Below are positions 4,819 to 39,289 of a stretch of 64,000 bases of DNA, one piece after another. Where the stretch lies: positions 33,741 through 97,740 of the forward strand of contig CAYQIY010000011.1 in the NCBI GenBank assembly GCA_964417635.1, given 5' to 3'. Source of the stretch: an uncultured Pseudomonadota bacterium. Lineage in GTDB: Bacteria; Bacillota; Sulfobacillia; JAUYEF01. The translations under genes were made by a program, and so were the position numbers. Within the stretch, counting starts at the first letter, position 1. Each line of letters begins with the position of its first letter. The notes below the pieces were generated by a model. It made no database searches. It was not told the origin of the DNA and saw only the letters and a program-made list of their open reading frames with translations.

Positions 4819-4844
4819 AACACTGACCCGTGAGGGGGAGCGCT

Positions 4845-5906: not shown

Positions 5907-5921
5907 AGACCGAACTAAGAA

Positions 5922-5952
5922 CCCCGCCGAACCCGGCGGGGTTTTGTCGTTT
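5922..5952 (+). terminator. Rho-independent terminator downstream of ftsZ
   Basis: CCCCGCCG-aacc-CGGCGGGG hairpin followed by TTTTGTCGTTT. Confidence 0.65.
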
Positions 5953-5967
5953 CAAAGCCAACAGTGC

Positions 5968-6001
5968 GTGACAGTATGCGCCATAGCGCTTCGCTTATAA
6001 T
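5968..6001 (+). promoter_or_regulatory. Candidate spoIIG-type promoter (-35-like GTGACA, ~22 nt spacer, TATAAT)
   Basis: GTGACA ... 22 nt ... TATAAT about 85 nt upstream of spoIIGA start; unusual spacing resembles the Spo0A-dependent spoIIG promoter of B. subtilis; a TGTCGTT (0A-box-like) lies ~20 nt further upstream. Confidence 0.3.
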
Positions 6002-6087
6002 GTAGACACGTTCTGAGACGCTATCTGAACGAATACTCTTGCTATAAGAGCAGGCATTACGTCTGTTAGAGCCTAGGGGTGGCCCCG

Positions 6088-22703: not shown

Positions 22704-25700
22704 ATGCCGAAGAGACAAGATGTTAAGAGGGTGCTGCTTTTAGGCTCGGGTCCTATAGTCATTGGACAGGCAGCAGAATTCGACTACGCAGGGAGCCAAG
22801 CGTGTCTCTCGCTCAAAGAAGAGGGTATACAGATTGTGCTTGTGAACTCCAACCCTGCCACCATAATGACCGATCCAACCATGGCAGACAGGGTGTACAT
22901 CGAACCGCTTACGCTGGATATAGTTGAGCAGGTAATATGCAAAGAAAAGCCCGACAGTCTGTTGCCTACGCTGGGTGGACAGGTCGGGCTCAATCTTGCC
23001 AAAGAGTTGCACGAGTCCGGTGTGCTGCAAAGACATGGTGTGCGTCTTCTGGGTACGCCTATTGATGCCATAAGACAGGCAGAAGACAGGCAGATGTTCA
23101 AAGACATGCTTCGCTCGATAGACCAGCCGGTACCCGAAAGTGTTGTCGTGACAAATGCTGATGACGCGTTGCGTTTTGCAACGCGTCACGGTTACCCTGT
23201 TGTTGTGCGTCCGGCGTACACGCTAGGCGGCACCGGGGGGGGCATAGCATACACCGAGAGCGAACTTGCTGAGATTGTGAGAAGAGCGCTCAAGATGAGC
23301 ATCATAGGACAGGCGCTAATAGAAAAATGTGTGTCTGGATGGAAAGAGATCGAGTATGAAGTGATGCGTGATTCGATCGGCAACTGCATCACCGTGTGCA
23401 ATATGGAAAACCTTGATCCGATGGGTATTCACACAGGTGATAGTGTGGTTGTCGCCCCAAGTCAGACCATCTCGCAAGATGAATACCAGATGCTCAGAAG
23501 CGCTTCTCTTAAGATCATAAGCGCGCTCGGTATTGAAGGCGGGTGCAACGTGCAGTTTGCGCTTGATCCTGAGAGCAGCAAGTACTATGTAATTGAGGTC
23601 AACCCCAGGGTGAGCCGTTCTAGCGCGCTCGCGTCCAAAGCCACAGGCTATCCGATTGCGCGTATTGCGGCCAAGATCGCCATTGGGCTCAACCTCGACG
23701 AAATCACAAACCCGATAACCCAGGCTGGCTGCGCCTGTTTTGAGCCAGCACTTGACTACGTCGTCGTCAAAATCCCGCGGTGGCCGTTCGACAAATTCTC
23801 CTTAGGCGATAGACGACTCGGCACGCAGATGAAAGCCACTGGCGAGGTAATGGCTATCGGGCGCAGCTTCGAGAGCGCGCTTCACAAGGCCGTATGTTGC
23901 CTTGAAGCAGACAACAAGGGGTTCTACCTCCCCGGATTGAAGGAGCGTTCGGTGCAGCAATTGCTTGAGCAGGTGGCCTGTGCTGATGACGAACGTCTTT
24001 TCGTTGTCGCCGAACTGCTGAGGCGAGGCGTTGATACCAAGCAGATTCGGTCTGTCTCCTGCATAGACCCGTGGTTTTTGTCTCGCATCAAGAGCATCGT
24101 GCTGATGGAACAGCAGATTGCTGCGGCGAGGCCAGATACCGGACAACCACTTGCAGACGCTCAGCTCGAGGCAGTGAAGCGCGCAAAGAGAATGGGCTTT
24201 CCAGATTCATCGATCGCCTCTATCTGGGGCGTTTCCGAAGCCCAGGTACGCTTGTTGCGTAAGCACAAAGCGCACACGTCGTATCGGATGGTGGACACGT
24301 GTGCGGGCGAATTCAGCGCGCTAACGCCGTACTACTACTCTGTGTTCGGAGAGGCTGACGAAGCTCAGCAATCGGCGGGCTCCGTGATCGTTGTGGGTTC
24401 TGGCCCCATACGTATTGGCCAGGGCATCGAGTTTGACTACTCCTGTGTGCGCGCTGTGCAGGCTTTTCGCAAACAAGGGATCAGGACTGTTGTCATAAAC
24501 AACAACCCTGAGACTGTTAGCACGGACTTCAGCATCTCTGACAGACTGTATTTCGAACCTCTGGCAGTTGAAGACGTGCTTGAAGTAGTGCGAAAGGAGG
24601 CGCCGCTCGGCATAGTGCTTCAGTTCGGCGGGCAGACAGCTATAAACCTTGCACGCTATCTGCACGAAGAAGGCATCCCGGTGCTTGGCACATCTCCGGA
24701 TACCATTGACATGGCTGAAGACAGGCAGCGGTTTGAAGAACTGCTTGCAGAGTTGGGCATAAGCCGTCCGGCCGGTGGCACCGCGCACTCTGTCGAAAGA
24801 GCGTGCGAGATAGCGTGCAACGTAGGATACCCTGTGCTGGTAAGACCTTCTTATGTCTTGGGCGGACGTGCTATGCAGGTTGTTTACAACGAAGCAGCTC
24901 TCAAAGAGTACATGCTGAGCGCCATAAAAGTGAGCCCTGAACACCCCGTGCTCATCGACCAGTATATAAGTGGAGTCGAGATTGAAATCGACGCGGTCGC
25001 AGACGGCGAAGACACACTTATCCCTGCTATCATGGAGCATGTGGAGCGAGCGGGCGTGCACAGCGGGGACAGCATAGCATTCTGTCCCTCGAAGACGCTT
25101 GACTCAGACATCGAGTCAGAGGTCGTGTCGTACGTCAGCAGGATTGCCAAAGCGCTTTCGGTAAGAGGGTTGCTTAATGCGCAGTTTGTGGTGCGAGACA
25201 AGAAAGTGTACGTGCTTGAGGTCAATCCAAGAGCGTCTCGGACCGTGCCGTTTGTGTCCAAAGTGACGGGAGTGCCGCTCGTGGACATAGCAGTAGCTGT
25301 TATGTGTGGTAACACTTTGAGGTCACTGGGCTATACTCCAGGACTCATGCCGCGTCCGACGGTAACCGGCGTCAAGGTACCGGTGTTCTCCTGGGCAAAA
25401 CTAACGCTCGTGGACACCAGCCTCGGGCCTGAGATGAAGTCTACAGGAGAAGTAATGGGAGTGGACACTGATCCCAACACAGCGCTTTACAAGGCGTTGC
25501 TAGCAGCTGGCATATCTTTGGACAGGCGCGGCAGTGTTCTCCTCACCGTGGCCGATAGGGACAAACATGAGTGCGTCAGCATCGCGAGAATGCTGATTGA
25601 AGCAAGGTATGCTCTGGTTGCCACGCCCGGAACGTGTGCTTACTTGCGTGAACACGGTCTAGATGTGCAGCAAGTGCCCAAACTCGACAAGGGAGATCAC

Positions 25701-25991
25701 ATCGTTGAGAGAATTGTCTCCGGAGAGATAACGCTTGTGGTCAACACTCTTACGGGTGGAGAGCGTCCTAGGACTGACGGATTCCGAATCAGGCGTGTGG
25801 CGGTAGAACACGGAATACCTTGCCTCACGAGTTTGGATACCGCACATGCGCTTTGCTCGGTGCTTTGTTCTGGTACTTCTCCCGAGTCCGTGAAAGTCTT
25901 GGCGCTTCAAGATCTGCACTTGGCTGAAGGGAGAGGACACGATGTGGCACAGAGTTGTAGCGGAGGTGCTGGACATCTTGCCGGTCGGTAA
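22704..25991 (+). CDS. carB: Carbamoyl-phosphate synthase large subunit
   Basis: 1095 aa; duplicated ATP-grasp halves and C-terminal MGS-like domain; 3' end overlaps pyrK start by ~50 nt. Confidence 0.95.
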   Translation: MPKRQDVKRVLLLGSGPIVIGQAAEFDYAGSQACLSLKEEGIQIVLVNSNPATIMTDPTMADRVYIEPLTLDIVEQVICKEKPDSLLPTLGGQVGLNLAKELHESGVLQRHGVRLLGTPIDAIRQAEDRQMFKDMLRSIDQPVPESVVVTNADDALRFATRHGYPVVVRPAYTLGGTGGGIAYTESELAEIVRRALKMSIIGQALIEKCVSGWKEIEYEVMRDSIGNCITVCNMENLDPMGIHTGDSVVVAPSQTISQDEYQMLRSASLKIISALGIEGGCNVQFALDPESSKYYVIEVNPRVSRSSALASKATGYPIARIAAKIAIGLNLDEITNPITQAGCACFEPALDYVVVKIPRWPFDKFSLGDRRLGTQMKATGEVMAIGRSFESALHKAVCCLEADNKGFYLPGLKERSVQQLLEQVACADDERLFVVAELLRRGVDTKQIRSVSCIDPWFLSRIKSIVLMEQQIAAARPDTGQPLADAQLEAVKRAKRMGFPDSSIASIWGVSEAQVRLLRKHKAHTSYRMVDTCAGEFSALTPYYYSVFGEADEAQQSAGSVIVVGSGPIRIGQGIEFDYSCVRAVQAFRKQGIRTVVINNNPETVSTDFSISDRLYFEPLAVEDVLEVVRKEAPLGIVLQFGGQTAINLARYLHEEGIPVLGTSPDTIDMAEDRQRFEELLAELGISRPAGGTAHSVERACEIACNVGYPVLVRPSYVLGGRAMQVVYNEAALKEYMLSAIKVSPEHPVLIDQYISGVEIEIDAVADGEDTLIPAIMEHVERAGVHSGDSIAFCPSKTLDSDIESEVVSYVSRIAKALSVRGLLNAQFVVRDKKVYVLEVNPRASRTVPFVSKVTGVPLVDIAVAVMCGNTLRSLGYTPGLMPRPTVTGVKVPVFSWAKLTLVDTSLGPEMKSTGEVMGVDTDPNTALYKALLAAGISLDRRGSVLLTVADRDKHECVSIARMLIEARYALVATPGTCAYLREHGLDVQQVPKLDKGDHIVERIVSGEITLVVNTLTGGERPRTDGFRIRRVAVEHGIPCLTSLDTAHALCSVLCSGTSPESVKVLALQDLHLAEGRGHDVAQSCSGGAGHLAGR

Positions 25992-26730
25992 GGATACCTA
26001 CCGGATGCGGCTTTCGGCACCTGAGTTAGTGCGTGACGCAAGAAGTGGCCAATTCGTAGAAGTGTTGTGTGGAGGAGTCTCGTTACCGTATCTCAGGCGA
26101 CCAATCAGCATCCACAGCCTGGACAAGCAGTGCGGTGTGCTGGGACTGCTTTTTCGTGTGGTCGGATCCGGCACAGAGTACATGGCTTCACTACGCGCAG
26201 GAGACAACGTCGACCTGTTAGGACCTCTTGGCAACGGGTGGCCGGATGTGTCAGCCAAGAACGTGCTGATGTTGGCGGGCGGAATAGGGATTGCGCCAAT
26301 GCCTGAAGCAGCTAAGACATACAAAGCTGCAGGCGCTGACGTAAGGTTCTTGTACGGTGCCAGATCCGAAGATGAACTAGTAGCGCTGGATGCGCTCGAG
26401 GATAGCGGGATACAGCCTGTGCTGGCCACTGACGATGGCTCTCGAGGGTACGAAGGGTTTGTCACCGATCTGCTCCCACAGCAGATTGAAGCGCTCGGCG
26501 ATGCTGTTGTAATGGCGTGTGGGCCAACTCCGATGCTGCGAGTGGCGCAGCGCATATGCCGCGATATGGGCGCTGTGTTATATGTGAGCCTGGAGCAGAA
26601 GATGGCGTGTGGCGTCGGAGCGTGTCTCGGTTGTGTGGTGGAGACTGTGCACCGGTCGCCTCGTTATGTGAAGGTGTGCGCCGACGGGCCTGTGTTCCGT
26701 GCGGATGAGGTGGTGATCGGTGATGTGTAA
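25942..26730 (+). CDS. pyrK: Dihydroorotate dehydrogenase electron-transfer subunit
   Basis: 262 aa; RRPISI FAD-binding motif and C-terminal MACGVGACLGC 2Fe-2S motif. Confidence 0.9.
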   Translation: MWHRVVAEVLDILPVGKDTYRMRLSAPELVRDARSGQFVEVLCGGVSLPYLRRPISIHSLDKQCGVLGLLFRVVGSGTEYMASLRAGDNVDLLGPLGNGWPDVSAKNVLMLAGGIGIAPMPEAAKTYKAAGADVRFLYGARSEDELVALDALEDSGIQPVLATDDGSRGYEGFVTDLLPQQIEALGDAVVMACGPTPMLRVAQRICRDMGAVLYVSLEQKMACGVGACLGCVVETVHRSPRYVKVCADGPVFRADEVVIGDV

Positions 26731-27637
26731 GATGGAAGTGAACCTGGCAGGACTCATACTGAAGAACCCGGTGATGACTGCATCCGGCACTTTTGGGTAC
26801 GGGCGTGAGTACGCGCATGTCGTGCCGCTTCGCGAACTCGGCGCGGTGGTTGTCAAAGGCACGACACTGCTTGCCCGTGACGGTAACCCACCGCCCCGCG
26901 TGGTTGAAACGCCTGCTGGGATGTTGAACGCTATCGGGCTTCAGAACGTGGGTGTAGATGCGTTCTTGCGCGATGAGCTGCCGTTTTTGAGAGACGCCGG
27001 AGCCACCGTGGTATTAAACCTCGCGGGCCACACCGTCAAGGACTACGAGGAGGCCACAGCGCGTGTGGATGGAGCACCGGGTTTGCATGCTATAGAAGTG
27101 AACATCTCGTGTCCGAACGTGTCTATGGGAGGCATGGCGTTCGGAGTTTCGCCTAAGAGCGCCTACGAGGTGGTCGCGGCTGTTAGAAAACGCACGGCGC
27201 TTCCTGTGATAGCAAAACTATCACCCAATGTGACAGACATAAAGCAGATAGCCACTGCGGTTGTTGAAGCGGGTGCGGACGCAGTGTCGCTCATCAATAC
27301 GCTTGTGGGTATGGCGATAGACGTCGATGCCAGACAGCCTGTGCTCAAGAATGTGACTGGAGGACTGTCGGGCCCTGCGGTAAGACCTGTGGCAGTGCGA
27401 ATGGTGTGGGATGTGTGCTCATGCGTTGACGTTCCGGTGGTAGGTATAGGTGGAATTAGCACTGCGCGCGATGCACTCGAGTTTATCATGGCGGGAGCGA
27501 GCGCTGTGCAGGTGGGCACAGCCATGTTCCGAGAGCCAACAGCACCGCTTGAGGTCATTAAGGGTATTGGCGAGTATCTAACGCAGAACTCACTGTGTCT
27601 TGAAGAAATAGTCGGGATAGCAAGGAGGAGTGCGTAG
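26720..27637 (+). CDS. pyrD: Dihydroorotate dehydrogenase catalytic subunit (class 1B)
   Basis: 305 aa; NPVMTASGTFGYG and TIM-barrel PyrD motifs; start may be Met5 (~26732). Confidence 0.95.
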   Translation: MMCKMEVNLAGLILKNPVMTASGTFGYGREYAHVVPLRELGAVVVKGTTLLARDGNPPPRVVETPAGMLNAIGLQNVGVDAFLRDELPFLRDAGATVVLNLAGHTVKDYEEATARVDGAPGLHAIEVNISCPNVSMGGMAFGVSPKSAYEVVAAVRKRTALPVIAKLSPNVTDIKQIATAVVEAGADAVSLINTLVGMAIDVDARQPVLKNVTGGLSGPAVRPVAVRMVWDVCSCVDVPVVGIGGISTARDALEFIMAGASAVQVGTAMFREPTAPLEVIKGIGEYLTQNSLCLEEIVGIARRSA

Positions 27638-27638
27638 A

Positions 27639-28364
27639 TTGAGCAAGAGAGACAGGATCATAGTCGCGCTCGACACCACCAATCTGAACGATGCTCGTGC
27701 TGTGGTCGAGAAACTTCAGGGCAGTGCCAGATGGTTTAAGGTAGGCATGGAGCTATTCTATTCAGCCGGCTGGCAGGCGGTCGAGATGGTGAGCGGCTCG
27801 GGGGCAAGCGTGTTCTTGGACCTTAAGTTCAACGATATCCCGAACACGGTGCAAGGAGCTTTCCGGTCTTGTCTTAGACCGGGGGTTGGGATGATCAACA
27901 TGCACACCACAGCCGGGCTTGAGGCGATGAAAAGTGCAATGCAGCAAGTGCAGCAGATCGAGGTCCATGCTAGGCCAATGGTGATCGGAGTTACGGTTCT
28001 CACGAGCCTTGACGAAGCCGCACTGAACGAGCAGTTAGGAATGCCCGGCAGTGTGATGCAAAATGTCACGCGACTGGCCGGTCTGGCGAAGCAGGCAGGG
28101 CTCTGCGGTGTGGTTGCGTCTCCACTCGAGACCCGCGCAATAAAGCAGGCGTGTGGGCAAGACATGATAGTTGTCACACCCGGCGTCAGGCCGGTGTGGT
28201 CGGGCACGCAGGACCAGAGGCGTTTTGCATCTCCGGCGCAGGCTTTTGCCGATGGAGCTGACTATATAGTGATCGGAAGACCTGTTACCGCCGCTGTCGA
28301 TCCTCTTAGCGCATATGAGCGGATCGCTGAAGAAGTAGAAGCACAACAGGGGGGAAGAGTGTGA
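27639..28364 (+). CDS. pyrF: Orotidine 5'-phosphate decarboxylase
   Basis: ORF 27630..28364; start moved to TTG (Leu4) after AAGGAGGAG; IIVALD and DLKFNDIPNT motifs. Confidence 0.9.
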   Translation: MSKRDRIIVALDTTNLNDARAVVEKLQGSARWFKVGMELFYSAGWQAVEMVSGSGASVFLDLKFNDIPNTVQGAFRSCLRPGVGMINMHTTAGLEAMKSAMQQVQQIEVHARPMVIGVTVLTSLDEAALNEQLGMPGSVMQNVTRLAGLAKQAGLCGVVASPLETRAIKQACGQDMIVVTPGVRPVWSGTQDQRRFASPAQAFADGADYIVIGRPVTAAVDPLSAYERIAEEVEAQQGGRV

Positions 28365-28933
28365 CAGAGAACGAGATCATCTCACTGTTTGAGGAGACAG
28401 GAGTCATTCTTACCGGCCATTTCCGCCTTACGAGCGGTAGGCACAGTGATCGTTTCCTCCAGTGTTCGCAGGTATTGCAGCATCCTGCTGCAACCGAGGC
28501 GCTGTGCAAACAGCTCGCGTCCAAATTCGCGGACGACAAAATCGATGTCGTGGCAGGCCCCGCTATGGGCGGAATCATATTGGCATACGAGGTCAGCAGA
28601 GCTCTTGGCGCGCGAGCAATATACGCCGAACGCGAAGATGGCCAGATGGTGTTACGTCGTGGATTCCACGTGGGACCGAACGAGAACGTGCTGTTGGTAG
28701 AAGACGCCGTAAGCACCGGAGGATCTGTCAATCAGGTCGCGGAAGTGATAGCCGCGTGTGGTGCAAGAATAGTGGGTATCGGGGCGCTTGTGGACAGGAC
28801 AGGTGGCAAAGTGTCTTTCGGCGTACCGTTCAGACCTCTCATTAGCATGGAGATCAAGTCGTATTCACCCGCAGAATGCCCGATGTGCCAACAAGGAATT
28901 CCACTGTATCTGCCGAAATCTGGCCGGCGCTAG
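28361..28933 (+). CDS. pyrE: Orotate phosphoribosyltransferase
   Basis: 190 aa; VLLVEDAVSTGGS PRPP-binding motif. Confidence 0.95.
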   Translation: MTENEIISLFEETGVILTGHFRLTSGRHSDRFLQCSQVLQHPAATEALCKQLASKFADDKIDVVAGPAMGGIILAYEVSRALGARAIYAEREDGQMVLRRGFHVGPNENVLLVEDAVSTGGSVNQVAEVIAACGARIVGIGALVDRTGGKVSFGVPFRPLISMEIKSYSPAECPMCQQGIPLYLPKSGRR

Positions 28934-29096: not shown

Positions 29097-29149
29097 GACA
29101 TATGTACAGTATAGATTCACACTTAGTTATGGAAAGGGGGGTTAACTTG

Positions 29150-29713
29150 ATGGCGCAGGAACAGGATGCGCTTGCGATGAGGGTCAAGCGCTTCAGAGAG
29201 AACAACAACATGTCTGTGCGAGCGCTTGCCGCAAGAGTAGGAGTGACTCCCAGTTTTATCTATCAGCTGGAACAGGGCAAGGTTTCGGCTTCATATTCGA
29301 CTCTTAAGAGCATAGCCTCCGCTCTGCACACTTCTGTATCGGTGCTTGCCGGTGACGAAGTACCGACTGAGTGGTTCCTAGTCAAAAAGCACGACAGACG
29401 GAAATTGGTGCTCGACGGCACGGGGATGGCTTACGAACTGCTGAACTTCACGGGAGCGCGTGCTAAGCGAATGCATCCGCTGTTTTTCACGCTGGATGCA
29501 GGTGCTGAGGAGCGAGGTACTCTGTACGAGCACGAGAGAGAAGAGTTTGTGTTTCTAATTGAGGGACAGTTGGAGATCGTGATGGCAGGCAAGAAATACA
29601 CGCTTGAGGGCGGAGACGCGCTGTACTTCATGTTTGAGAGGCCTGAGGTCATCAGGAACACAGGAGAGAGCAAAGCCCAAGGCATTCTGGTGGTATCACC
29701 TCCGGGCGTATAG
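29150..29713 (+). CDS. XRE-family transcriptional regulator with C-terminal cupin domain
   Basis: ORF 29102..29713; start at Met17 after GGAAAGGGGGG; N-terminal HTH (MSVRALAARVGVTPSFIYQLEQGK), C-terminal cupin-like beta segment. Confidence 0.8.
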   Translation: MAQEQDALAMRVKRFRENNNMSVRALAARVGVTPSFIYQLEQGKVSASYSTLKSIASALHTSVSVLAGDEVPTEWFLVKKHDRRKLVLDGTGMAYELLNFTGARAKRMHPLFFTLDAGAEERGTLYEHEREEFVFLIEGQLEIVMAGKKYTLEGGDALYFMFERPEVIRNTGESKAQGILVVSPPGV

Positions 29714-29741: not shown

Positions 29742-32177
29742 GTGGACGAACTAGCGATCGACCGCAAATTCGAGAAAGTCAACGAGATTGTCGAAAAACA
29801 CAACCGCAAAGTCTCGAGTCTGGTCACCATTTTGCAGGAGGTACAGCAAGAGTACAGGTACCTTCCGCAGGAAGTGATGACCTATATAGCTACTGCACTC
29901 GGGATACCGCCTGCGATGGTTTACGGCGTGGCCACGTTCTATTCACAGTTCTCGACCGAACCTAAGGGAAAGTACGTCGTAAGAGTATGCGACGGTACAG
30001 CTTGTCACGTGAGAGGATCAGATCCGGTACACTTCGCGATACGCAGAGCGGCGGGACTCAGTGGAGACAGAGTCACAACCGATGACCTCATGTTCACGGT
30101 TGAGACAGTCGCATGCGTCGGAGCGTGTGGGCTTGCACCGGTGGTGATGGTGAACGACGATAGGGTCTACGGCCAAGTGTCACCTCAGGAAGCAGCCATA
30201 CTCATAGAAGAACTGAGGACGGACAATCCGCCAGCAACCCGTTCCGAACAAGCGGTCGAGACAACCAAGTCGGCTGCGCGCGTCTTTGAACGGCTGAGCA
30301 ACAGGCGTGCCTTGGACGCGCTTCGCCAGTCTGCTCTTGACGCAGTGAAGAACCAGAAGGCACGGATTTTGGTGTGTATGGAGACTGCGTGCTTGGCAAA
30401 CGGCGCACAGCAGGTATATGAGGCGTTTAAGCAGCAAGTCAAGGCTAAGCAGCTGGGCGCAGAAGTAGTAGAACTGCGCGAGCCGGCTACACCCGGGGAT
30501 GTTGCGCTGGTAAAAGCAGGTTGCCACGGCTACTGTCAGATAGGTCCGCTGGTCAAGATTATGCCGCAAGACGTGTTGTACGCTCATGTCGGGCCAGAAG
30601 ACGTAGACGAAATCCTTGAGAAGACGATCGTAAAAGGCGAGATTATCGAGAGGCTGCTGTACAAAGACGCTGCAACGGGCGACACTGCAGTGTCTGAAGA
30701 ACAGAACCCGTTCTACAAAGGCCAGCGCAAAGTGGCGCTTGCTTTGTGTGGCCTAATAGACTCAGAAGACATATACGAGTACGTAGCATTTGGGGGATAC
30801 CAGGCGTTTGCCAAAGCGATATTCGAGTTATCACCCGAACGCGTGATCGATGAGGTTATTGGGTCTGGGCTGAGAGGCCGCGGAGGCGGTGGATTCCCCA
30901 CAGGTAAGAAGTGGCATTTCGCCAGGCAGGCTAAATCGGACACCAAGTACGTTATCTGTAATGCAGACGAGGGTGACCCCGGTGCGTTCATGGATAGAAG
31001 CGTCATGGAAGGCGACCCGCATCGGTTGCTCGAGGGAATGATGATAGCTGGCTATTCGATCGGCGCGAACGAGGGTTACATCTATGTTCGAGCCGAGTAT
31101 CCGTTGGCGGTGAAGAGACTGCGTAAGGCGATTGCTGAGGCTACTGCGCTTGGTCTTCTTGGAGACAACATTTTGGGCAGCGGCTTCGGGTTTCGCATTA
31201 ATATCAAAGAGGGAGCTGGTGCTTTCGTCTGCGGCGAGGAGACGGCACTTCTGGCATCGATGATGGGCGAAAGAGGCATGCCGAAGCCCAAACCTCCTTT
31301 TCCATCTGACTCAGGCCTTCTTGGAAAACCGACGATCATTAACAATGTCGAGACGTTTGTTAACGTACCCTCGATAATATCTGCTGGCAAGGAATGGTTC
31401 AGGTCGATGGGAACCGAACGAAGCCCCGGTACGAAGACCTTCGCTCTGGCCGGGCAAGTGGCGCGCACCGGTCTTATCGAGGTGCCCATGGGGATGAGTT
31501 TGAGAGATGTGGTGTTCGGAATCGGTGGCGGAATGCGGAGACCTGGGTACGAGTTCAAAGCGGTGCAGATAGGCGGGCCATCAGGAGGCTGTCTGACAAA
31601 AGAGCATCTCGACCTGCCGCTGGATTTCGATTCTCTAACCAGCGTAGGCGCCATGATAGGCTCAGGTGGTCTTGTGGTGGTGGACAGCGGAACGTGTATG
31701 GTTGAGATGGCCAAGTTCTTCATGGCGTTCGTGCAGAACGAGAGCTGCGGCAAGTGTGTACCGTGCAGAGAGGGCACCAAGCAGATGCTAGCTCTGCTGA
31801 ACAAGATAACCGAAGGCAAGGGTACGCTTCAGGACATAGACACGCTGTGCCACCTTGCGGATATGGTTAAGACGAGCGCGCTATGCGGACTGGGCAAGAC
31901 TGCTCCAAATCCAGTGCTGACCACGCTTCAGTATTTCAAGGACGAGTACCTTGCGCACGTCGTCTCAAAGCATTGCCCCGCCGGCGTATGCAAACAGCTA
32001 CAGAAGTACTGTATTGACTTGGAGAAGTGTAAGGGCTGCGGCTTGTGCAAGAAAGTGTGTCCCGTGGGCGCTATATCAGGCGAGATAAAGGGGCCTCACA
32101 CAATCGATCAAGAGAAATGCATCAAATGCGGGGCTTGCGTGGAACGCTGCAAGTTCAACGCGATCATCGTGTCATAG
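29742..32177 (+). CDS. Fused NuoE-like/NuoF-like NADH-binding hydrogenase subunit (HydC-HydB fusion)
   Basis: ORF 29604..32177 trimmed to GTG after GAGAGGTG (upstream part overlaps regulator); N-terminal 2Fe-2S NuoE-like domain (CDGTACH..CVGACGLAP), ~45 aa linker, then 2Fe-2S thioredoxin-like domain, NuoF FMN/NAD module (GRGGGGFPTGKKW, ESCGKCVPCREG) and C-terminal 2x[4Fe-4S]; no stop between the E-like and F-like parts. Confidence 0.85.
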   Translation: MDELAIDRKFEKVNEIVEKHNRKVSSLVTILQEVQQEYRYLPQEVMTYIATALGIPPAMVYGVATFYSQFSTEPKGKYVVRVCDGTACHVRGSDPVHFAIRRAAGLSGDRVTTDDLMFTVETVACVGACGLAPVVMVNDDRVYGQVSPQEAAILIEELRTDNPPATRSEQAVETTKSAARVFERLSNRRALDALRQSALDAVKNQKARILVCMETACLANGAQQVYEAFKQQVKAKQLGAEVVELREPATPGDVALVKAGCHGYCQIGPLVKIMPQDVLYAHVGPEDVDEILEKTIVKGEIIERLLYKDAATGDTAVSEEQNPFYKGQRKVALALCGLIDSEDIYEYVAFGGYQAFAKAIFELSPERVIDEVIGSGLRGRGGGGFPTGKKWHFARQAKSDTKYVICNADEGDPGAFMDRSVMEGDPHRLLEGMMIAGYSIGANEGYIYVRAEYPLAVKRLRKAIAEATALGLLGDNILGSGFGFRINIKEGAGAFVCGEETALLASMMGERGMPKPKPPFPSDSGLLGKPTIINNVETFVNVPSIISAGKEWFRSMGTERSPGTKTFALAGQVARTGLIEVPMGMSLRDVVFGIGGGMRRPGYEFKAVQIGGPSGGCLTKEHLDLPLDFDSLTSVGAMIGSGGLVVVDSGTCMVEMAKFFMAFVQNESCGKCVPCREGTKQMLALLNKITEGKGTLQDIDTLCHLADMVKTSALCGLGKTAPNPVLTTLQYFKDEYLAHVVSKHCPAGVCKQLQKYCIDLEKCKGCGLCKKVCPVGAISGEIKGPHTIDQEKCIKCGACVERCKFNAIIVS

Positions 32178-32189
32178 GGGGCGATATTC

Positions 32190-34208
32190 ATGGCAGGGGC
32201 TCCGTCAGTCAAGATCAACGGACGAGCGTGCAAGATAGACGGCGAAACCAACATACTCGAGTTGGCCAGAAAGCAAGGTATAGACATTCCATCGTTCTGT
32301 TACCACTCAGAATTGAGTGTGTACGGGGCGTGCAGAATGTGCCTGGTCGACGTTGAGGGAATGGGGCTTGTAGCAGCGTGCTCCACCGTGCCAAGAGATG
32401 GTATGGTCATCGAAACGATGACCGAAAAGGCACAAGCAGTGCGCAAGACGATACTCGAATTACTGCTTGCCAACCATGACAGAGAGTGTACGGCGTGCGA
32501 CAAAAACGGCTCGTGCAAGCTGCAAAAACTCGCATACCAGCTAGGCGTGGATAGAGTGCGCTTCGGTACGCCTGAACTCATGGCGCAAGTAGACCTAGAT
32601 GGACCTGCTATAGTGCGCAATCCCAACAGATGCATATTGTGCGGCGATTGCGTGAGAATGTGCCGCGAGATCCAGGGGATTGGCGTGCTGGACTTCACAC
32701 ACCGAGGCCCAAAGACGAGTGTGGAGCCCGCTTTCGGCAAGAAACTCACCGAAGTGGAGTGTGTCAACTGCGGTCAGTGCATAGCGGTGTGTCCGACCGG
32801 CGCGCTGACGGCAAAATCACAGGTTACCGGCGTGTGGGGTGCACTGCACGACGAGACTAAGACCGTCGTTGTGCAAATTGCGCCGGCCGTGCGTGTGGCT
32901 ATAGGCGAGGAGTTTGGACTGGGCGCGGGAGAGGTAGCAACAGGCAAGATTGCCGCGGCTATGAGGCTTATGGGGTTCGACTATGTGTTCGACACCACAT
33001 TCGCGGCAGATCTCACCTCGGTCGAAGAGACTCACGAATTCGTCCAAAGGCTTACGGCAGGTCAGAAACTGCCTCACCTTACGTCATGCTGTCCGGGCTG
33101 GGTGAAGTACTGTGAGCAGTTCTATCCTGGCATGCTCAAGAATCTGTCAACCTGCCGGTCGCCTCAGCAGATGTTTGGATCTATGGCAAAGCACTATTTT
33201 GCTTCCAGCATCAACAAGAAGGCTTCGGATCTGACTGTGGTGTCCGTGATGCCGTGCACTGCCAAGAAGTTCGAGGCAGAACGGCCAGAGTTCGCGGACA
33301 AAGACCAAAAAGATGTGGACTTCGTGCTCACAACCGTAGAACTAGCACGCATGATAAAAGAGTCCGGGATACTGTTTGACGAAATAGAGCCCGAGGCGAT
33401 GGATGTGCCTCTCGGACTGGGAACCGGAGCAGGCGTGATATACGGCGTCACCGGCGGCGTGGCTGAGGCGGTATTGCGCACAGCATACAGCATGTTAAGT
33501 GGCGGTAAGATCGACCATCTCGAGTACCAGGAAGTGCGCGGTATGGAGGGGGTCAAGACTGCCGAGATAGAAATCCTCGGAAACAAGGTCAAACTTGCCG
33601 TGGTGAGCGGCCTTGCCAACGCCAAGCGAGTGCTTGACGCCGTGAACGCCGGAGAGATGACATGCCACATCATAGAGGTCATGGCGTGTCCAGGCGGCTG
33701 CGTCGGAGGAGGCGGACAGCCGTACCCGAACGATACACGCGTCAGAGCACGTAGAGGGAAGGGGCTCTACACTCTCGACAGACAGATGCAGCTGAGACAT
33801 CCAACCGAGAACGTGTACGTCAAGATGCTGTACGATAAGTGGCTTGGTGAGCCAGGCAGTGAAGTGGCACATCGCGCACTGCACACGACCTACTATCCGA
33901 GACGCAGAATCAGTGGAGAAGTGATTGAAGGCATCATGAAGGCTCAGTGCGATGCGCCGGTGCGAGTGTCGGTCTGTGTGGGTACAGGTTGCTACACTCG
34001 CGGTTCGTACGAAGTGCTTGCGCGGATCCGCGAACTGGCAGAAGCATATGGGTTGGAGGGTTCTGTCGAAGTGACGGCGACGTTCTGTTTGGAGCGCTGT
34101 TCTGAGGGCGTGAGCGTAAGAGTTGGAGATCAGATCGTAACCGGAATAAATCCCGACAATGTCGAAGAACTGTTCAAGCACAAAGTGCTTGCGCAGGTCT
34201 CCAACTAA
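32190..34208 (+). CDS. hydA: [FeFe]-hydrogenase catalytic subunit HydA
   Basis: H-cluster motifs L1 TSCCPGW, L2 MPCTAKKFE, L3 EVMACPGGCVGGGGQP; N-terminal 2Fe-2S + [4Fe-4S] domains; extra C-terminal thioredoxin-like 2Fe-2S domain. Confidence 0.92.
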   Translation: MAGAPSVKINGRACKIDGETNILELARKQGIDIPSFCYHSELSVYGACRMCLVDVEGMGLVAACSTVPRDGMVIETMTEKAQAVRKTILELLLANHDRECTACDKNGSCKLQKLAYQLGVDRVRFGTPELMAQVDLDGPAIVRNPNRCILCGDCVRMCREIQGIGVLDFTHRGPKTSVEPAFGKKLTEVECVNCGQCIAVCPTGALTAKSQVTGVWGALHDETKTVVVQIAPAVRVAIGEEFGLGAGEVATGKIAAAMRLMGFDYVFDTTFAADLTSVEETHEFVQRLTAGQKLPHLTSCCPGWVKYCEQFYPGMLKNLSTCRSPQQMFGSMAKHYFASSINKKASDLTVVSVMPCTAKKFEAERPEFADKDQKDVDFVLTTVELARMIKESGILFDEIEPEAMDVPLGLGTGAGVIYGVTGGVAEAVLRTAYSMLSGGKIDHLEYQEVRGMEGVKTAEIEILGNKVKLAVVSGLANAKRVLDAVNAGEMTCHIIEVMACPGGCVGGGGQPYPNDTRVRARRGKGLYTLDRQMQLRHPTENVYVKMLYDKWLGEPGSEVAHRALHTTYYPRRRISGEVIEGIMKAQCDAPVRVSVCVGTGCYTRGSYEVLARIRELAEAYGLEGSVEVTATFCLERCSEGVSVRVGDQIVTGINPDNVEELFKHKVLAQVSN

Positions 34209-34250: not shown

Positions 34251-34502
34251 GTGTTGATTACCGTCCAGGTTTGCATGGGGAGCTCCTGCTATATAAGGGG
34301 TTCGGCCAAGGTGGTTGAGACGTTAAGAAGACTGATAGAGCGAAATGGTCTTCTGAACAAAGTCGTGCTGAAAGGCAGCTTCTGCATGGAGCGCTGCACG
34401 CACGGAGTCACAATCAAAATAGATGACAGCCTTTTTACAGGTGTTCACCCAGAGGACATTGAACAGCTGTTCAGTCGCGAAGTGCTCGCACGCATTTCGT
34501 GA
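34251..34502 (+). CDS. Small thioredoxin-like [2Fe-2S] ferredoxin (NuoE-like fold)
   Basis: 83 aa, four Cys (CMGSSC...CMERC); paralogous to the C-terminal domain of HydA; GTG start after AAAGGAG. Confidence 0.7.
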   Translation: MLITVQVCMGSSCYIRGSAKVVETLRRLIERNGLLNKVVLKGSFCMERCTHGVTIKIDDSLFTGVHPEDIEQLFSREVLARIS

Positions 34503-36265
34503 CCCGAATAGAGGAGGTGGCGGCTCTCGTGGGGATCATCTCGACGATAGAAGCTAGGTGCAAGGATTGCTACAAGTGCCTAAGGGCATGTCCGGTCAAG
34601 GCGATAAAATTTGTGCCGGGAGATGCATCGGGTGAATTGCACGCTCGCGTGGTCGACGATATGTGTGTGCTTTGTGGTACGTGTGTAAAAGAGTGCCCTC
34701 AAAACGCCAAGAAGGTTCGTGAAGACCTGGACGTTGTCAAGCACATGCTTGAGTCAAAGCGACCGGGCGTGCCCATCGGCGTTAGCATTGCACCGTCGTT
34801 TGTGTCGGGTATGATGCTTGAAGAGCCGCTCGGCATAGTGAGCGCACTCAAGCGACTGGGGTTCGATGTGGTAGAGGAAACCGCGATAGGTGCTGCGCTT
34901 GTGGCTAAGTTTCACTCAGAATACGAACCGGACTCACAGCCTAAAGTCATAGGTACTGCGTGTCCGGTAGTGGTGAACCTCGTAGAGAAGTACTATCCGG
35001 ACGCAATAAGCAGCATGACACCTGTCGTTTCTCCCATGATAGCGCATGCTCGCGACCTTCGCGCGCGCCACCCTGGGATTCAGGTTGTGTTCATCGGGCC
35101 TTGCTTTGCCAAGAAGAGTGAGGCAGAGGAAGCTTACGGCAGTTCTGAGGTGGCGGCGGTGTTGACGTTCGCCGAACTGGCGAAGTGGTTCGAAGAAGAG
35201 GGCATAGACCTCGAGCAGATGCAGCCAGCAGAATTCGAAGGGCCGAATCCAGGCACCGCACGCTTTTTCCCGCTAGAGGGCGGCCTGCCTCATACAGCTT
35301 CGATGGAAACCGGAGTAGGCGCAAAAACTACTCTCGCTGTATCAGGTATCGAAGAGTGCATGGATTTCCTTAAGATGGCGCAGGAAGACAACCCCCTGAT
35401 AAAAGACATCGCAGTGGCTGATCTTCTAGCATGCAGAGGCGGCTGCATAAACGGCCCGGGCATCGCGACTACTGCAGACCAGTTCACGCGAAGAGCACAC
35501 CTTGTGCAGTATGCTGCAGCGAAAAAGCGCTTGACGTGCGAGGTAGATGAACCCAGCGCCGAAGATATCGATCTCTCGCGCGCATTCTGCTCCAAACAGC
35601 CCAAACTGCGTCAGCCTACAGAACAAGAAATACGGCAGATTCTCGAGCGTACTGGCAAGATGACAGAGGCTGACGAACTGAACTGCGGTTCATGCGGATA
35701 CAGTTCGTGTAGGGCAAAAGCCATAGCGGTGTACCAAGGACTGGCTGAGATAGAGATGTGCCTTCCGTACATGCGCTCAAAGGCAGAGTCGCTCTCGAAC
35801 TCGGTTGTGGAGCATGCACCAGACGGCATCGTAGTCGTTGACAGTGCTTGCCGAATAGTCCAGGTAAACCGTTCGTTTGAACGGATGTTTGGGTCAGGTG
35901 CCAAGAACGTTTTGGGACAGCCACTTGCGAACATCATTGATTCTGAGAACTATGAGCGGGTTCTCAGTGAGCACAAGCCCATCATGGTGACATGTGCGTA
36001 TCCGAAATATGGAGTGGTGACGCTCCAGACCATATTCTATATGCCTGACCAGAGGCTCGCGGTCGGTATAATGGCCGACATCACCGAAGAAGAGAAGCGC
36101 AAAGAAGCCATGCTGAAACTCAAAGCCGCTACCATGACTCGGGCACAAGAGGTCATCAACAAGCAGATGAAGGTGGCGCAGGAAATAGCGAGCCTTCTGG
36201 GAGAGACTACCGCAGAGACCAAAGTGCTGCTTTCAAAAATCATTGAACTAAACCGCCAGGACTGA
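34499..36265 (+). CDS. hydS: Putative sensory [FeFe]-hydrogenase HydS (ferredoxin + degenerate H-cluster domain + PAS)
   Basis: N-terminal 2x[4Fe-4S] ferredoxin motifs; H-domain with altered motifs (TACPVV, GPCFAKK, LACRGGCINGPG); Cx2Cx4Cx16C motif (CGSCGYSSC...C) then PAS-like domain; start may be ~34529. Confidence 0.8.
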   Translation: MTRIEEVAALVGIISTIEARCKDCYKCLRACPVKAIKFVPGDASGELHARVVDDMCVLCGTCVKECPQNAKKVREDLDVVKHMLESKRPGVPIGVSIAPSFVSGMMLEEPLGIVSALKRLGFDVVEETAIGAALVAKFHSEYEPDSQPKVIGTACPVVVNLVEKYYPDAISSMTPVVSPMIAHARDLRARHPGIQVVFIGPCFAKKSEAEEAYGSSEVAAVLTFAELAKWFEEEGIDLEQMQPAEFEGPNPGTARFFPLEGGLPHTASMETGVGAKTTLAVSGIEECMDFLKMAQEDNPLIKDIAVADLLACRGGCINGPGIATTADQFTRRAHLVQYAAAKKRLTCEVDEPSAEDIDLSRAFCSKQPKLRQPTEQEIRQILERTGKMTEADELNCGSCGYSSCRAKAIAVYQGLAEIEMCLPYMRSKAESLSNSVVEHAPDGIVVVDSACRIVQVNRSFERMFGSGAKNVLGQPLANIIDSENYERVLSEHKPIMVTCAYPKYGVVTLQTIFYMPDQRLAVGIMADITEEEKRKEAMLKLKAATMTRAQEVINKQMKVAQEIASLLGETTAETKVLLSKIIELNRQD

Positions 36266-36272
36266 GGCCGAT

Positions 36273-37424
36273 ATGCAGCTTTTCTATGAAGTGGGATACT
36301 CGCAGCTCAACAAGAACAACGAAGAACTGTGTGGCGATAGCGTCGAAGTAACTCGCACTCGCCGCTCAACGATCGTCACGGTGTCTGACGGGCTGGGTAG
36401 CGGCGTCAAGGCTAACATTCTGTCGTCTCTGACCACCAAGATGGCAGCCACCATGCTGAAAAAAGGTTCAGCTGTGGACGAAGTGATCGAGACGCTGGTG
36501 GGTACGCTGCCCACATGTAAGGTCAGAAAGCTGGCCTACAGCACTTTCACCGTGGCAAAGTTGGATACTGACGGCAGCATCTACATAGCCGAATACGATA
36601 ACCCTCCGGTGATGTCGGGCTCAGCGCAGGCTCAGCTGGACGTAAGGTTTTGTGAGCGGGAAGTCGGCGAAAAGACGATTCGCGAGGCTCGGTTTCGGGC
36701 GAAGCCAGGAGACTGGCTCGTGATAGTGAGCGACGGCGTACTGCACGCCGGTATAGGAGGAGTCTGGAACCTCGGGTGGGGTTGGGACAGAGTATCCAGC
36801 TACGTGAGCCGACTCGCGGCGAGTGGTCTTAGCGCAGACGAACTGGCAGCAGATGTCACGTCTTTGTGCAACAGGCTCTACGGAGCAATGCCCGGGGATG
36901 ATGCCACTTGCGTGGCGATTAGAGTCAGGGAGCCGCGGCATCTCGCACTGATGGTAGGCCCACCGGCAGACCCAAAAGACGACGAGATTGCCGTGCAGCG
37001 CCTGCTCGAGTGCCCAGGCAGGAAGGTGGTCGCCGGTGGCACAACCGGGAACCTGGTAGCCCGTGCGCTAGGCAAGCCCATAACAGTCGACCTTGGTTCG
37101 TGTTACGAGGACGTGCCTCCGACAGGTGTTATCGAGGGCATCGATCTTGTGACCGAAGGTATGCTCACGCTTGTAAAGACGCTTGAACACCTGAGGAAGA
37201 ATACATCTCTGTCCCGGTTTGAAGGTAGAAGAGACGGTGCAAGCAGGCTGGCTCGCGCTTTGCTTGAAGCCGACAAGGTGCACGTAATAGTAGGACGCGC
37301 CATAAATCCGGCTCATCAGAGTCGTGATGTGCCTGCGGCACTTGCGCTAAAGAGCCAACTCATAGACGACATAATACGCGAACTACGAAAGAGGCAGAAG
37401 CGGGTGAGCGTTGAGTATCACTGA
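36273..37424 (+). CDS. SpoIIE/PP2C-family serine phosphatase with C-terminal uncharacterised domain
   Basis: 383 aa; PP2C-like N-terminal half (GDSVEV..VSDGLGSG..., VSDGVLHAG, DDATCVAI); follows hydS with 7-nt gap. Confidence 0.75.
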   Translation: MQLFYEVGYSQLNKNNEELCGDSVEVTRTRRSTIVTVSDGLGSGVKANILSSLTTKMAATMLKKGSAVDEVIETLVGTLPTCKVRKLAYSTFTVAKLDTDGSIYIAEYDNPPVMSGSAQAQLDVRFCEREVGEKTIREARFRAKPGDWLVIVSDGVLHAGIGGVWNLGWGWDRVSSYVSRLAASGLSADELAADVTSLCNRLYGAMPGDDATCVAIRVREPRHLALMVGPPADPKDDEIAVQRLLECPGRKVVAGGTTGNLVARALGKPITVDLGSCYEDVPPTGVIEGIDLVTEGMLTLVKTLEHLRKNTSLSRFEGRRDGASRLARALLEADKVHVIVGRAINPAHQSRDVPAALALKSQLIDDIIRELRKRQKRVSVEYH

Positions 37425-39139: not shown

Positions 39140-39289
39140 GATGGTATTACACAGCCTTTCCGATTGCTGACTACACCAGTATACCACAGCCGTTGAGTGC
39201 ACTTTTTGCGAGGCACAAAGCCGAAATTAGGTGGTGCAAGCCGAACTCGGCAGGCGTAGAATTGTGCTTGTAGAGAGGGGTGAACTGCC

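Follow-up and report, generated by a model that had tools for sequence, protein, structure and literature searches.

The Bfu family is built on a BfuBC core and includes the electron-bifurcating HydABC hydrogenases of Thermotoga maritima (PDB 7P5H/7P8N/7P92) and Thermoanaerobacter kivui (8A6T) (PMC9499530, PMC9304861). The usual composition of Bfu enzymes comprises separate HydB and HydC polypeptides, and a HydC-HydB fusion is mentioned neither in the family survey nor in the T. maritima structure paper, both of which have 0 occurrences of the words 'fused' and 'fusion'. Joined modules of this kind are documented in related systems. In the non-bifurcating HydAB of Syntrophus aciditrophicus (SYN_01369/01370), a purified enzyme with a HydA partner, a HydC-like N-terminus is fused to HydB (PMC7311640). 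HoxF of the NAD+-reducing [NiFe] hydrogenase (5XF9/5XFA) and the beta subunit of the Methylobacterium extorquens tungsten formate dehydrogenase, MeFDH1-beta (7E5Z/7XQW), are one-chain NuoE-NuoF fusions. The NuoE/NuoF subunits of complex I (Nqo2/Nqo1) represent the homologous NADH/FMN module with its N1a and N3 cluster positions.

In the window (the whole 64,000-nucleotide stretch of DNA analysed here), HydC and HydB are encoded as one chain, HydCB, so that two genes stand in place of the three of T. maritima and T. kivui HydABC. Judged from sequence, hydCB is very probably a real and evolutionarily fixed end-to-end fusion of hydC and hydB that would, together with hydA, form a two-polypeptide Thermotoga-type electron-bifurcating/confurcating [FeFe] hydrogenase. 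The gene, its modules and its neighbours are arranged as follows.

29102..29713, + strand: XRE-HTH and cupin transcription regulator (HTH_3, Cupin_2), directly upstream of hydCB; likely true start ATG 29150
29742..32177, + strand: hydCB, fused gene, 811 aa, ~89 kDa (estimated from length), GTG start, stop included; open reading frame, domain matches and 17 full-length fused homologues
29763..30248, + strand: HydC / NuoE-like [2Fe-2S] module, residues 8-169, ligands C83, C88, C125 and C129 (PF01257)
30249..30293, + strand: linker proper, residues 170-184, between the HydC and HydB alignment ends and overlapping the low-confidence stretch 163-179 of the structure model
30294..30659, + strand: HydB N-terminal helix and thioredoxin-like [2Fe-2S] domain, residues 185-306, ligands C212, C217, C261 and C265 (NF041612)
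30765..31976, + strand: NuoF-like FMN/NAD(H) core, SLBB and N3-type [4Fe-4S], residues 342-745, with C669, C672, C675 and C715 and with H739, C745 and C750 (TIGR01959 over 342-740)
32007..32165, + strand: C-terminal 2x[4Fe-4S] ferredoxin ('bridge') domain, residues 756-808, C763/766/769/773 and C793/796/799/803 (Fer4)
32190..34208, + strand: hydA, [FeFe] hydrogenase catalytic subunit, 672 aa, extra C-terminal [2Fe-2S] domain at about residues 591-663 (NF040763)
34251..34502, + strand: small Trx-like gene (PF01257 E = 3e-7; phmmer against HydA E = 1.9e-22)
34499..36265, + strand: HydS/HfsB-like putative sensory [FeFe] hydrogenase with Fe_hyd_lg_C, FeS and PAS domains
36273..37424, + strand: PP2C/SpoIIE-type Ser phosphatase, HfsC-like (PF07228 E = 2.6e-15)

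The hydCB gene is one open frame that runs from GTG 29742 to the stop codon at 32175-32177 (811 codons by ORF calling and translation) and contains no in-frame stop codon. A Shine-Dalgarno-like GAGAGGTG lies 7-8 nt 5' of the GTG, and the start is backed by matching homologue N-termini: P0001 opens with MDEVALDRKFEKVNE and the window protein with (M)DELAIDRKFEKVNE. Pfam and NCBIfam profile searches agree with the single frame of about 811 aa and the domain order given in the preliminary description. Residues 14-158 match 2Fe-2S_thioredx / NuoE (PF01257, whole-protein E = 8e-61), residues 204-306 a clostridial-type [2Fe-2S] ferredoxin-like domain (NF041612, E = 1.2e-17), residues 375-543 Complex1_51K (PF01512, E = 1.9e-48), residues 568-616 SLBB (PF10531), residues 655-739 NADH_4Fe-4S (PF10589, E = 3.2e-33) and residues 757-808 two Fer4 motifs. 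By alignment, the HydC module corresponds to residues 6-167 of the complete D. kuznetsovii HydC, while the N-terminal [2Fe-2S] region of HydB aligns to T. kivui HydB from residue 4 and also to the T. maritima HydB N-terminus, and the C-terminal ferredoxin domain to the C-termini of T. maritima, T. kivui and A. mobile HydB. The 811-residue HydCB is a complete HydC joined to a complete bifurcating-type HydB.

The surrounding operon follows a conserved order: XRE/cupin gene, hydCB, hydA, small Trx-like gene, hydS and PP2C phosphatase gene. The XRE/cupin gene also lies directly upstream of the hydrogenase genes in six related loci (L001, L005, L007, L008, L009 and L010), and a small gene with a weak PF01257 match occupies the equivalent position in L001, L007, L008 and L009. 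Downstream of the hydrogenase genes, hydS is present in the fused loci L001, L005, L007, L008 and L009 and in the split locus L006; the phosphatase gene adjoins hydS in related loci too. L003 carries a fused hydCB-hydA set directly upstream of a split hydC-hydB-hydA set, and its hydS comes after this second, split set. Promoter and terminator scans of the window did no better than on shuffled sequence. The XRE/cupin regulator and the HydS(PAS)-PP2C module on either side would probably control expression. With a fused set lying beside a split one in L003, the fused HydCB clade might be read as a functionally distinct HydABC paralogue rather than a neutral repackaging; we consider this unlikely.

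Assignment of the fused chain to the bifurcating class draws on the Bfu-type features present in the window: a NuoF-like FMN/NAD(H) subunit with N3 cluster, both extra HydB Fe-S domains, a NuoE-like HydC and an adjacent HydA. Among solved structures, the nearest are without exception B subunits of bifurcating Bfu enzymes (7t2r_B, 823 bits; 8a6t_B, 798; 7p5h_B, 772; 7q4v_B, 736), and HydB and HydC modules, cofactor ligands and H-cluster HydA are the same as in T. maritima and T. kivui HydABC, with HydB-chain scores of 772-823 bits. HydA matches NF040763, the NCBIfam A6 model, with 786 bits against a cutoff of 765 and aligns to 8a6t_A (628 bits) and 7p5h_A (574 bits). The latter covers residues 8-663 and includes the extra C-terminal [2Fe-2S] domain that HydA shares with its T. 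maritima counterpart. C83/88/125/129 of the HydC module and C212/217/261/265 of the HydB N-terminal [2Fe-2S] domain are invariant in 22 fused and 71 split sequences, as are the N3-type ligands C669/672/675/715 in the fused and split alignments. The eight ferredoxin-domain cysteines, which are kept in all characterised bifurcating enzymes (PMC9499530), are invariant in 22/22 fused sequences and at least 70/71 split pairs, one split pair being gapped at two of them. H739, C745 and C750 are invariant and lie where candidate ligands of the His/Cys metal site would be expected, between the NuoF core and the C-terminal domain; this site holds Zn in T. maritima and a proposed [2Fe-2S] in A. mobile.

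Bifurcating HydB proteins are further distinguished by A/E at Tm232, M at Tm234, Phe instead of Tyr near FMN and GGPSG at Tm427-431 (Losey 2020). Mapped by alignment to 7p5h_B, HydCB has A415, M417, F495 (in GAGAFVCGEE) and GGPSG at 611-615, the diagnostic Phe being placed from the paper's description since its residue number there differs from the PDB chain numbering. These residues are near-invariant across the 22 fused sequences and 71 split pairs, with exceptions limited to G611V in one fused sequence and M417A in 3 split pairs. They bear directly on whether the locus encodes a non-bifurcating, NADH-only HydAB of the S. aciditrophicus type, which shares the N-terminal gamma-like fusion topology and the two-gene (alpha, beta) make-up (PMC7311640); moreover, the NCBIfam model matched by HydA is named 'NADH-dependent [FeFe] hydrogenase, group A6'. 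In the S. aciditrophicus type, however, the beta subunit (585+ aa) has neither of the extra Fe-S domains (Trx-like [2Fe-2S] and C-terminal 2x[4Fe-4S]), carries T/S at Tm232, K/S/A at Tm234 and Tyr near FMN, and contains no GGPSG, whereas the 811-residue HydCB displays the full bifurcating pattern and has only proven bifurcating enzymes as its best structural relatives. A non-bifurcating enzyme is thus improbable. HydCB also differs from HoxF and MeFDH1-beta, which have [NiFe] hydrogenase and formate dehydrogenase partners, share only 25-26% identity with it and have neither the N-terminal [2Fe-2S] domain nor the C-terminal ferredoxin domain specific to bifurcation. A complex I NuoF was rejected as well: TIGR01959 scores 483.4 against a cutoff of 558.65 bits and NF008436 384 against 749, complex I lacks the extra Fe-S domains and the H-cluster hydrogenase partner found in the window, and no membrane-arm nuo genes lie near hydCB, where the neighbours are hydA, hydS and the PP2C phosphatase gene.

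An AlphaFold2 model of HydCB (pLDDT 84, pTM 0.84) is of low confidence only at residues 1-6 and 163-179, with pLDDT < 50 for the latter stretch. The model superposes on T. kivui HydB with a TM score of 0.94 and on Bfu-type B chains with 0.93-0.94. For HoxF (5xfa_A) and MeFDH1-beta (7xqw_B), both modules are covered over about 726-732 columns with TM scores of 0.79-0.82. Judged indirectly, by pTM and Foldseek, the NuoE-like module would dock onto its NuoF-like partner in the manner of a separate HydC, placing its [2Fe-2S] cluster near FMN. The junction between the two is shorter than the ~45 aa linker originally proposed. D. kuznetsovii HydC ends at the equivalent of residue 169 and residue 2 of its HydB corresponds to residue 185, leaving an extra stretch of ~15 residues (170-184); the remainder is HydB's own N-terminal helix, ~20 residues preceding the Trx-like domain that are also found in separate HydB proteins. 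The disordered part is estimated at ~15-24 residues. Across 22 fused sequences, the linker-equivalent stretch is 20-34 aa long, rich in E, P and A and without a conserved motif.

These properties are relevant to the mature form of the enzyme. The gene could be fused and the enzyme nevertheless consist of three subunits, if the linker were cleaved after translation or HydB were also produced from an internal start. An exposed, disordered and unconserved linker would be accessible to proteases, and in-frame TTG and GTG codons occur within the HydB N-terminal helix region. Inspection of the sequence, however, revealed no ribosome-binding site 5' of these codons, no in-frame ATG at the junction and no start codon preceded by a credible ribosome-binding site, in agreement with the earlier observation that the junction contains neither a stop nor an obvious internal RBS-start pair. 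The fusion has been retained for long (57-76% identity across the clade), which would be unexpected if it were functionally irrelevant, and the analogous S. aciditrophicus fusion was purified as an intact 66 kDa beta subunit (PMC7311640). We therefore regard a three-subunit mature enzyme as very improbable. Under the favoured reading of HydCB as one continuous chain, a product of ~89 kDa, its oligomeric state and its bifurcating activity are predicted from the gene.

Fused relatives are numerous. Independent assemblies yield at least 19 further distinct sequences, 57-76% identical to HydCB, that contain an uninterrupted HydC-HydB fusion, mostly in the same operon context. The 17 full-length fused homologues are 808-855 aa long and 57-74% identical (NCBI MAGs, ENA, JGI, Logan). 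The best homologue, from a metagenome assembly, is 74% identical. L008 and L009 are also fused after gene-call correction; L011 and L012 likewise carry the fusion, but their sequences almost match those of P0006 and P0014. A comparison with relatives had been suggested at the outset as a check, with uniformly split close homologues counting against the fusion. The closest homologues (74, 71 and 68% identity) proved to be fused. Two near relatives annotated as unfused, P0028 and P0043, are 78-84% identical to fused proteins and were rejected as split genes: both are truncated calls with the NuoE module in frame 5' of the called start.

Beyond this clade, the premise that HydC and HydB are normally separate holds, as they are separate chains in solved HydABC structures and separate adjacent genes in 78/80 species-representative loci retrieved with their junction region, a set taken from among the matches listed, in which 2/80 fused is not a frequency. 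In an exhaustive search, a NuoE-like module was joined to a NuoF-like one in 45 of the best 150 representatives of 50%-identity clusters. That the single frame results from an assembly or sequencing error, with a stop or frameshift overlooked in a normally split operon, has a negligible probability: hydC and hydB of the closest cultured relatives do abut or overlap (by 8 nt as separate genes in D. kuznetsovii) and about 34 of the 78 split loci have both genes in the same frame with one stop codon between them, so that one base error could mimic a fusion, but the window junction is ~15 codons longer than the overlapping split arrangement and hence not a 1-nt change, the nearest homologues by identity are all fused, and the fusion is conserved in ~20 divergent, independent sequences from unrelated assemblies and assemblers, whose uninterrupted junctions differ in linker sequence and length. 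The fusion is genuine and common to a clade of uncultivated Bacillota.

The origin of the fusion was addressed by neighbour-joining trees, on which the single-origin claim is based. In concatenated HydC+HydB trees the fused genes form one clade with a bootstrap value of 0.86-0.92, or 0.63 when junction columns are left out. Support for the fused clade drops to 0.29-0.39 in single-partition trees (HydC-only, HydB-only). With P0028 and P0043 labelled as fused, a 128-taxon HydB-only set did not recover a split made up of the fused sequences (bootstrap 0.22); the eight outgroup sequences also fall within the smallest split that holds all of them. Multiple recent fusion or fission events had been considered when HydB-only trees gave 0/200 monophyly with P0028 and P0043 mislabelled as unfused, and were rejected as corrected labels and concatenated HydC+HydB yielded a monophyletic fused set. 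A 255-protein tree of the NuoF core only contains fused forms in several architectures and 22 state changes by Fitch parsimony, its resolution being too poor for counting independent fusions. The concatenated tree fits one old fusion, most likely a single event in an uncultivated lineage of Bacillota in which the hydC stop codon was lost and the frame adjusted.

The predicted HydCB-HydA enzyme would couple the oxidation of NADH and reduced ferredoxin to H2 production, or the reverse. Electrons may pass via FMN, the N3-type cluster, the N-terminal [2Fe-2S] and the mobile C-terminal 2x[4Fe-4S] domain, the route put forward for HydABC of T. maritima, T. kivui and A. mobile. The main effect of the tether would be an obligatory 1:1 stoichiometry and co-folding of HydB and HydC, not new chemistry. 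As subunit fusions go, HydCB is ordinary: the NuoE/NuoF superfamily is well known for joins of this kind, and the present one is a modest variant and not a surprise. In the open-access literature searched we found no description of such a fusion for a HydB with all bifurcating cofactors retained, an absence that is not proof.

The fusion has consequences for how these hydrogenases are catalogued and studied. In public MAG annotations the fused genes are truncated or mislabelled: they appear as 'NuoF' proteins of 610-635 aa whose NuoE module lies outside the call, or are named, for example, 'NAD(P)H-dependent oxidoreductase subunit E' or '4Fe-4S binding protein'. A survey based on counting hydC genes would for this reason wrongly record the organisms carrying them as being without HydC. 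For the family as a whole, HydCB indicates that a single chain can accommodate the conserved BfuBC bifurcating core. Encoded by two genes, a bifurcating hydrogenase may offer a simpler scaffold for heterologous expression in which correct stoichiometry is easier to obtain. The 20-34-residue tether between the HydC C-terminus and the N-terminal [2Fe-2S] domain of HydB limits the separation of both modules and, if the fused enzyme still bifurcates, would provide a natural constraint experiment on competing models of gating by domain movement (PMC9499530).

The hydCB gene encodes HydC and HydB in one polypeptide. ORF analysis and translation of the window give a single open frame from a GTG at 29742, preceded by a GAGAGGTG ribosome-binding site, to a stop at 32175-32177 (811 aa), with an N-terminus that agrees with those of aligned homologues. 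Pfam and NCBIfam assign the following domains:

Residues 14-158: NuoE-type 2Fe-2S_thioredx domain
Residues 204-306: clostridial-type [2Fe-2S] ferredoxin-like domain
Residues 375-543: Nuo51 FMN domain
Residues 568-616: SLBB
Residues 655-739: NuoF [4Fe-4S] region
Residues 757-808: 2x[4Fe-4S] ferredoxin domain

No in-frame stop interrupts the 811 codons. On inspection, the junction showed neither an in-frame ATG nor any start codon preceded by a convincing ribosome-binding site. The preliminary description of a single polypeptide with this domain order, free of a stop or an obvious internal RBS-start pair, is therefore accurate. With 811 codons and E-values down to 1e-61, the frame is no chance feature.

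In Desulfofundulus kuznetsovii, which carries the same operon type, hydC (170 aa) and hydB (626 aa) are separate genes with an 8-nt overlap. All of its HydC aligns with residues 8-169 of the window protein and residue 2 of its HydB with residue 185, and hydCB therefore comprises an entire HydC and an entire HydB with ca. 15 added residues between them. The linker noted earlier is thus present but shorter than the ~45 aa proposed, the remainder being an N-terminal helix found in separate HydB proteins too. The counterpart of residues 161-184 spans 20-34 residues in a set of 22 fused sequences; it is rich in Glu, Pro and Ala and lacks any conserved motif. An AlphaFold2 model built from a 51-sequence alignment has a mean pLDDT of 84 and a pTM of 0.84, with pLDDT below 50 at residues 1-6 and 163-179 only, the profile that two folded modules on a flexible tether would be expected to give.

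The fusion is shared by close relatives. A search of 5.8 billion proteins identified 17 full-length fused homologues (808-855 aa, 57-74% identity, 99-100% coverage) from NCBI MAGs, ENA, JGI and Logan assemblies, all with NuoE-type Cys ligands and an unbroken junction. The matches ranking after them are ordinary HydB proteins of 621-644 aa from Desulfofundulus, Moorella, Thermoanaerobacter, Desulfotomaculum and related genera. Two homologues, P0028 and P0043, are apparently split, with HydB parts 78-84% identical to fused proteins. They are ruled out as split genes, since 620-680 nt of uncalled DNA 5' of the called start encodes a NuoE module in the same frame without a stop. The concern that all close homologues might be split does not hold, because these homologues are fused and the two seeming exceptions are truncated gene calls. 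An assembly artefact is likewise rejected as the source of the fusion, which is kept in independently assembled homologues. In public MAG annotation, the loci L008 (4434-6908) and L009 (~4410-6833) carry a 'NuoF' of 635 and 610 aa, respectively, with the NuoE-like module uncalled; annotation-based surveys therefore under-count fused hydCB. A further homologue, P0018 (753 aa), has no NuoE module and contains a ~120-residue internal duplication in the NuoF core (alignment A1 columns ~508-627), which is probably an assembly artefact; it was left out of later analyses.

By sequence, the HydB part of hydCB is nearest to the B subunits of bifurcating enzymes with solved structures, namely A. mobile NiFe-HydB (7t2r_B, 823 bits), T. 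kivui (8a6t_B, 798 bits), T. maritima (7p5h_B, 772 bits) and A. woodii (7q4v_B, 736 bits), and the AlphaFold2 model superposes on these four with TM 0.92-0.94. Features distinguishing bifurcating from NADH-only beta subunits are extra Fe-S domains, the residues at T. maritima HydB positions 232 and 234, an FMN-proximal Phe and a GGPSG motif (Losey et al., PMC7311640). In hydCB, each of these reads as the bifurcating type: the HydB part carries extra Fe-S domains at its N- and C-termini, A415 and M417 correspond to A/E at 232 and M at 234, F495 is the FMN-proximal Phe rather than Tyr, and residues 611-615 form the GGPSG of positions 427-431. Almost no variation occurs in these diagnostic residues or in any Fe-S ligand across the 22 fused sequences and the 71 split pairs; it is limited to G611V in one fused sequence, M417A in three split pairs and a gap at two ferredoxin-domain Cys in one split pair. 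The published number of the diagnostic Phe is T. maritima HydB position 367 (PMC7311640); counted on the alignment with 7p5h_B (626 residues), GAGAFVCGEE has its Phe at 312 and position 367 is a Val, while positions 232, 234 and 427-431 agree with the chain numbering. The window HydA scores 786 against a 765-bit cutoff for NCBIfam 'group A6' and can be aligned over its full length to T. maritima HydA, one additional C-terminal domain included:

HydA residues ~591-663 (window ~33960-34180): extra thioredoxin-like [2Fe-2S] domain, as in T. maritima HydA

The genes flanking hydCB and hydA indicate a conserved locus.

29102-29713, plus strand: XRE-HTH/cupin regulator, directly 5' of hydCB
[quoted passage not shown]
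34499-37424, plus strand: HydS/HfsB-like putative sensory [FeFe] hydrogenase (Fer4, H-cluster domain, FeS, PAS) and PP2C/SpoIIE phosphatase, 3' of the hydrogenase genes

Most fused loci (L001, L005, L007) share the order XRE-HTH/cupin regulator, hydCB, hydA (676-697 aa), small Trx-like gene, hydS (PAS) and PP2C phosphatase. A small gene with a weak 2Fe-2S_thioredx match lies between hydA and hydS in L001, L007, L008 and L009, and in the window the small Trx-like gene overlaps hydS by 4 nt. The hydS-like and PP2C/SpoIIE genes are kept in fused and split relatives alike and resemble HfsB/HydS, a PAS-domain [FeFe] hydrogenase, and HfsC, a serine phosphatase, of Thermoanaerobacterium and Ruminococcus albus (PMC11837493). 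Together with the XRE/cupin regulator they probably control hydrogenase expression. Only 28 nt separate the regulator stop from the hydCB start, and co-transcription is therefore likely. For the regulator, ATG 29150 is the probable start: it has GGAAAGGGGGG ~8 nt upstream and gives 187 aa, against 203 aa for a start at 29102, the first ATG; homologues have 180-197 aa and the L007 copy 187 aa. Pyrimidine biosynthesis genes (carB, pyrK-like, pyrD, pyrF, phosphoribosyltransferase) lie upstream at 22704-28933 on the plus strand, and an upstream pyrD-pyrF-pyrE is common to the window and L007 (74% identity). The downstream stretch (37418-40168) carries dapF and, on the minus strand, an NFACT/RqcH-like gene. 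GC skew is positive over most of the window, as would fit genes that lie mostly co-oriented on the leading strand. The 64-kb window contains no further hydC, hydB or hydA.

Separate genes are the usual arrangement, as had been assumed. Using the junction region as query with one genome per species, hydC and hydB are split in 78 of the 80 loci among the matches listed, which is no frequency estimate; the two top-ranked loci, from a Bacillota and a Syntrophomonadaceae MAG, are fused and nearly identical to the homologues P0006 and P0014. Among the matches listed, about 34 of the 78 split loci (L013-L036, L038, L040, L043, L045, L048, L050, L052, L064, L067, L072; Lachnospiraceae, Ruminococcus, Gastranaerophilales, Chloroflexi and others) have both genes in the same frame with a single stop between them, a share biased because tblastn ranking favours same-frame loci. 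Such pairs would offer a one-mutation route to fusion. HMMER was run exhaustively against 1.84 billion cluster representatives; 45 of the best 150 by score place a NuoE-like module ahead of a NuoF-like module. This architecture therefore recurs in public data, though poorly named. About 19-25 of these 45, mostly metagenomic, also have a C-terminal ferredoxin domain and a ~150-200-residue gap fitting the Trx-like domain; one cluster has 116 members including a Polyangia MAG.

A neighbour-joining tree of concatenated HydC+HydB, built on 785 columns from 22 fused sequences and 71 truly split pairs, places all fused genes in a single clade (bootstrap 0.86-0.92). They remain monophyletic (0.63) without the junction columns, which might group fused sequences artificially, and are monophyletic in the point estimate of each partition with weak support (HydC-only 0.29, HydB-only 0.39). 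In a 128-taxon HydB-only set with P0028 and P0043 scored as fused, the fused set is not recovered as a split (0.22), and the smallest split that includes every fused sequence also takes in the eight outgroup sequences. Overall, these neighbour-joining trees lend moderate support to one old fusion retained under selection, with members up to ~40% different.

By analogy with homologous structures (PMC9499530, PMC9304861), NAD(H) would react at FMN in the NuoF-like core and electrons would pass to or from the H-cluster via the N3-type cluster and the HydA Fe-S chain. The ferredoxin branch would comprise the [2Fe-2S] of the HydC module together with the N-terminal [2Fe-2S] and a mobile 2x[4Fe-4S] domain at the C-terminus. 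HoxF (5xfa_A) and MeFDH1-beta (7xqw_B) are natural NuoE-NuoF fusions of solved structure, and the hydCB model spans both of their modules (TM 0.79-0.82, ~730 columns), indicating a canonical predicted position for the NuoE-like module. Fused and split paralogous hydrogenase operons occur in tandem in the genome GCA_049323775.1, where fused hydCB-hydA is directly followed by split hydC (172 aa), hydB (624 aa), hydA (670 aa) and hydS (L003, 8001-18553). The fused clade could represent a functionally distinct paralogue whose tether might limit the domain motions proposed to gate bifurcation, a reading we consider improbable. No signs of new chemistry were found. The chief effect of the fusion is most probably that HydB and HydC are kept at a 1:1 ratio and fold together.

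The fusion has precedents. The purified S. aciditrophicus HydAB has a beta subunit fusing a gamma-like with a beta part, and the hydrogenase of Nyctotherus ovalis looks like a fusion of alpha, beta and gamma equivalents (PMC7311640). Both are of the trimmed, non-bifurcating type, whereas hydCB keeps the full bifurcating cofactor set. We found no description of a fusion with that full set in the open-access literature searched, and 'fused' and 'fusion' do not occur in the Bfu family survey or the T. maritima structure paper. Therefore, hydCB represents a variant in subunit organisation within a known enzyme family, unlikely to surprise a specialist and already present in public metagenomic data, uncharacterised and often mis-annotated. 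It suggests that the bifurcating BfuBC core can exist as one chain, makes hydCB-hydA a possible two-gene expression scaffold, and its recognition corrects annotation.
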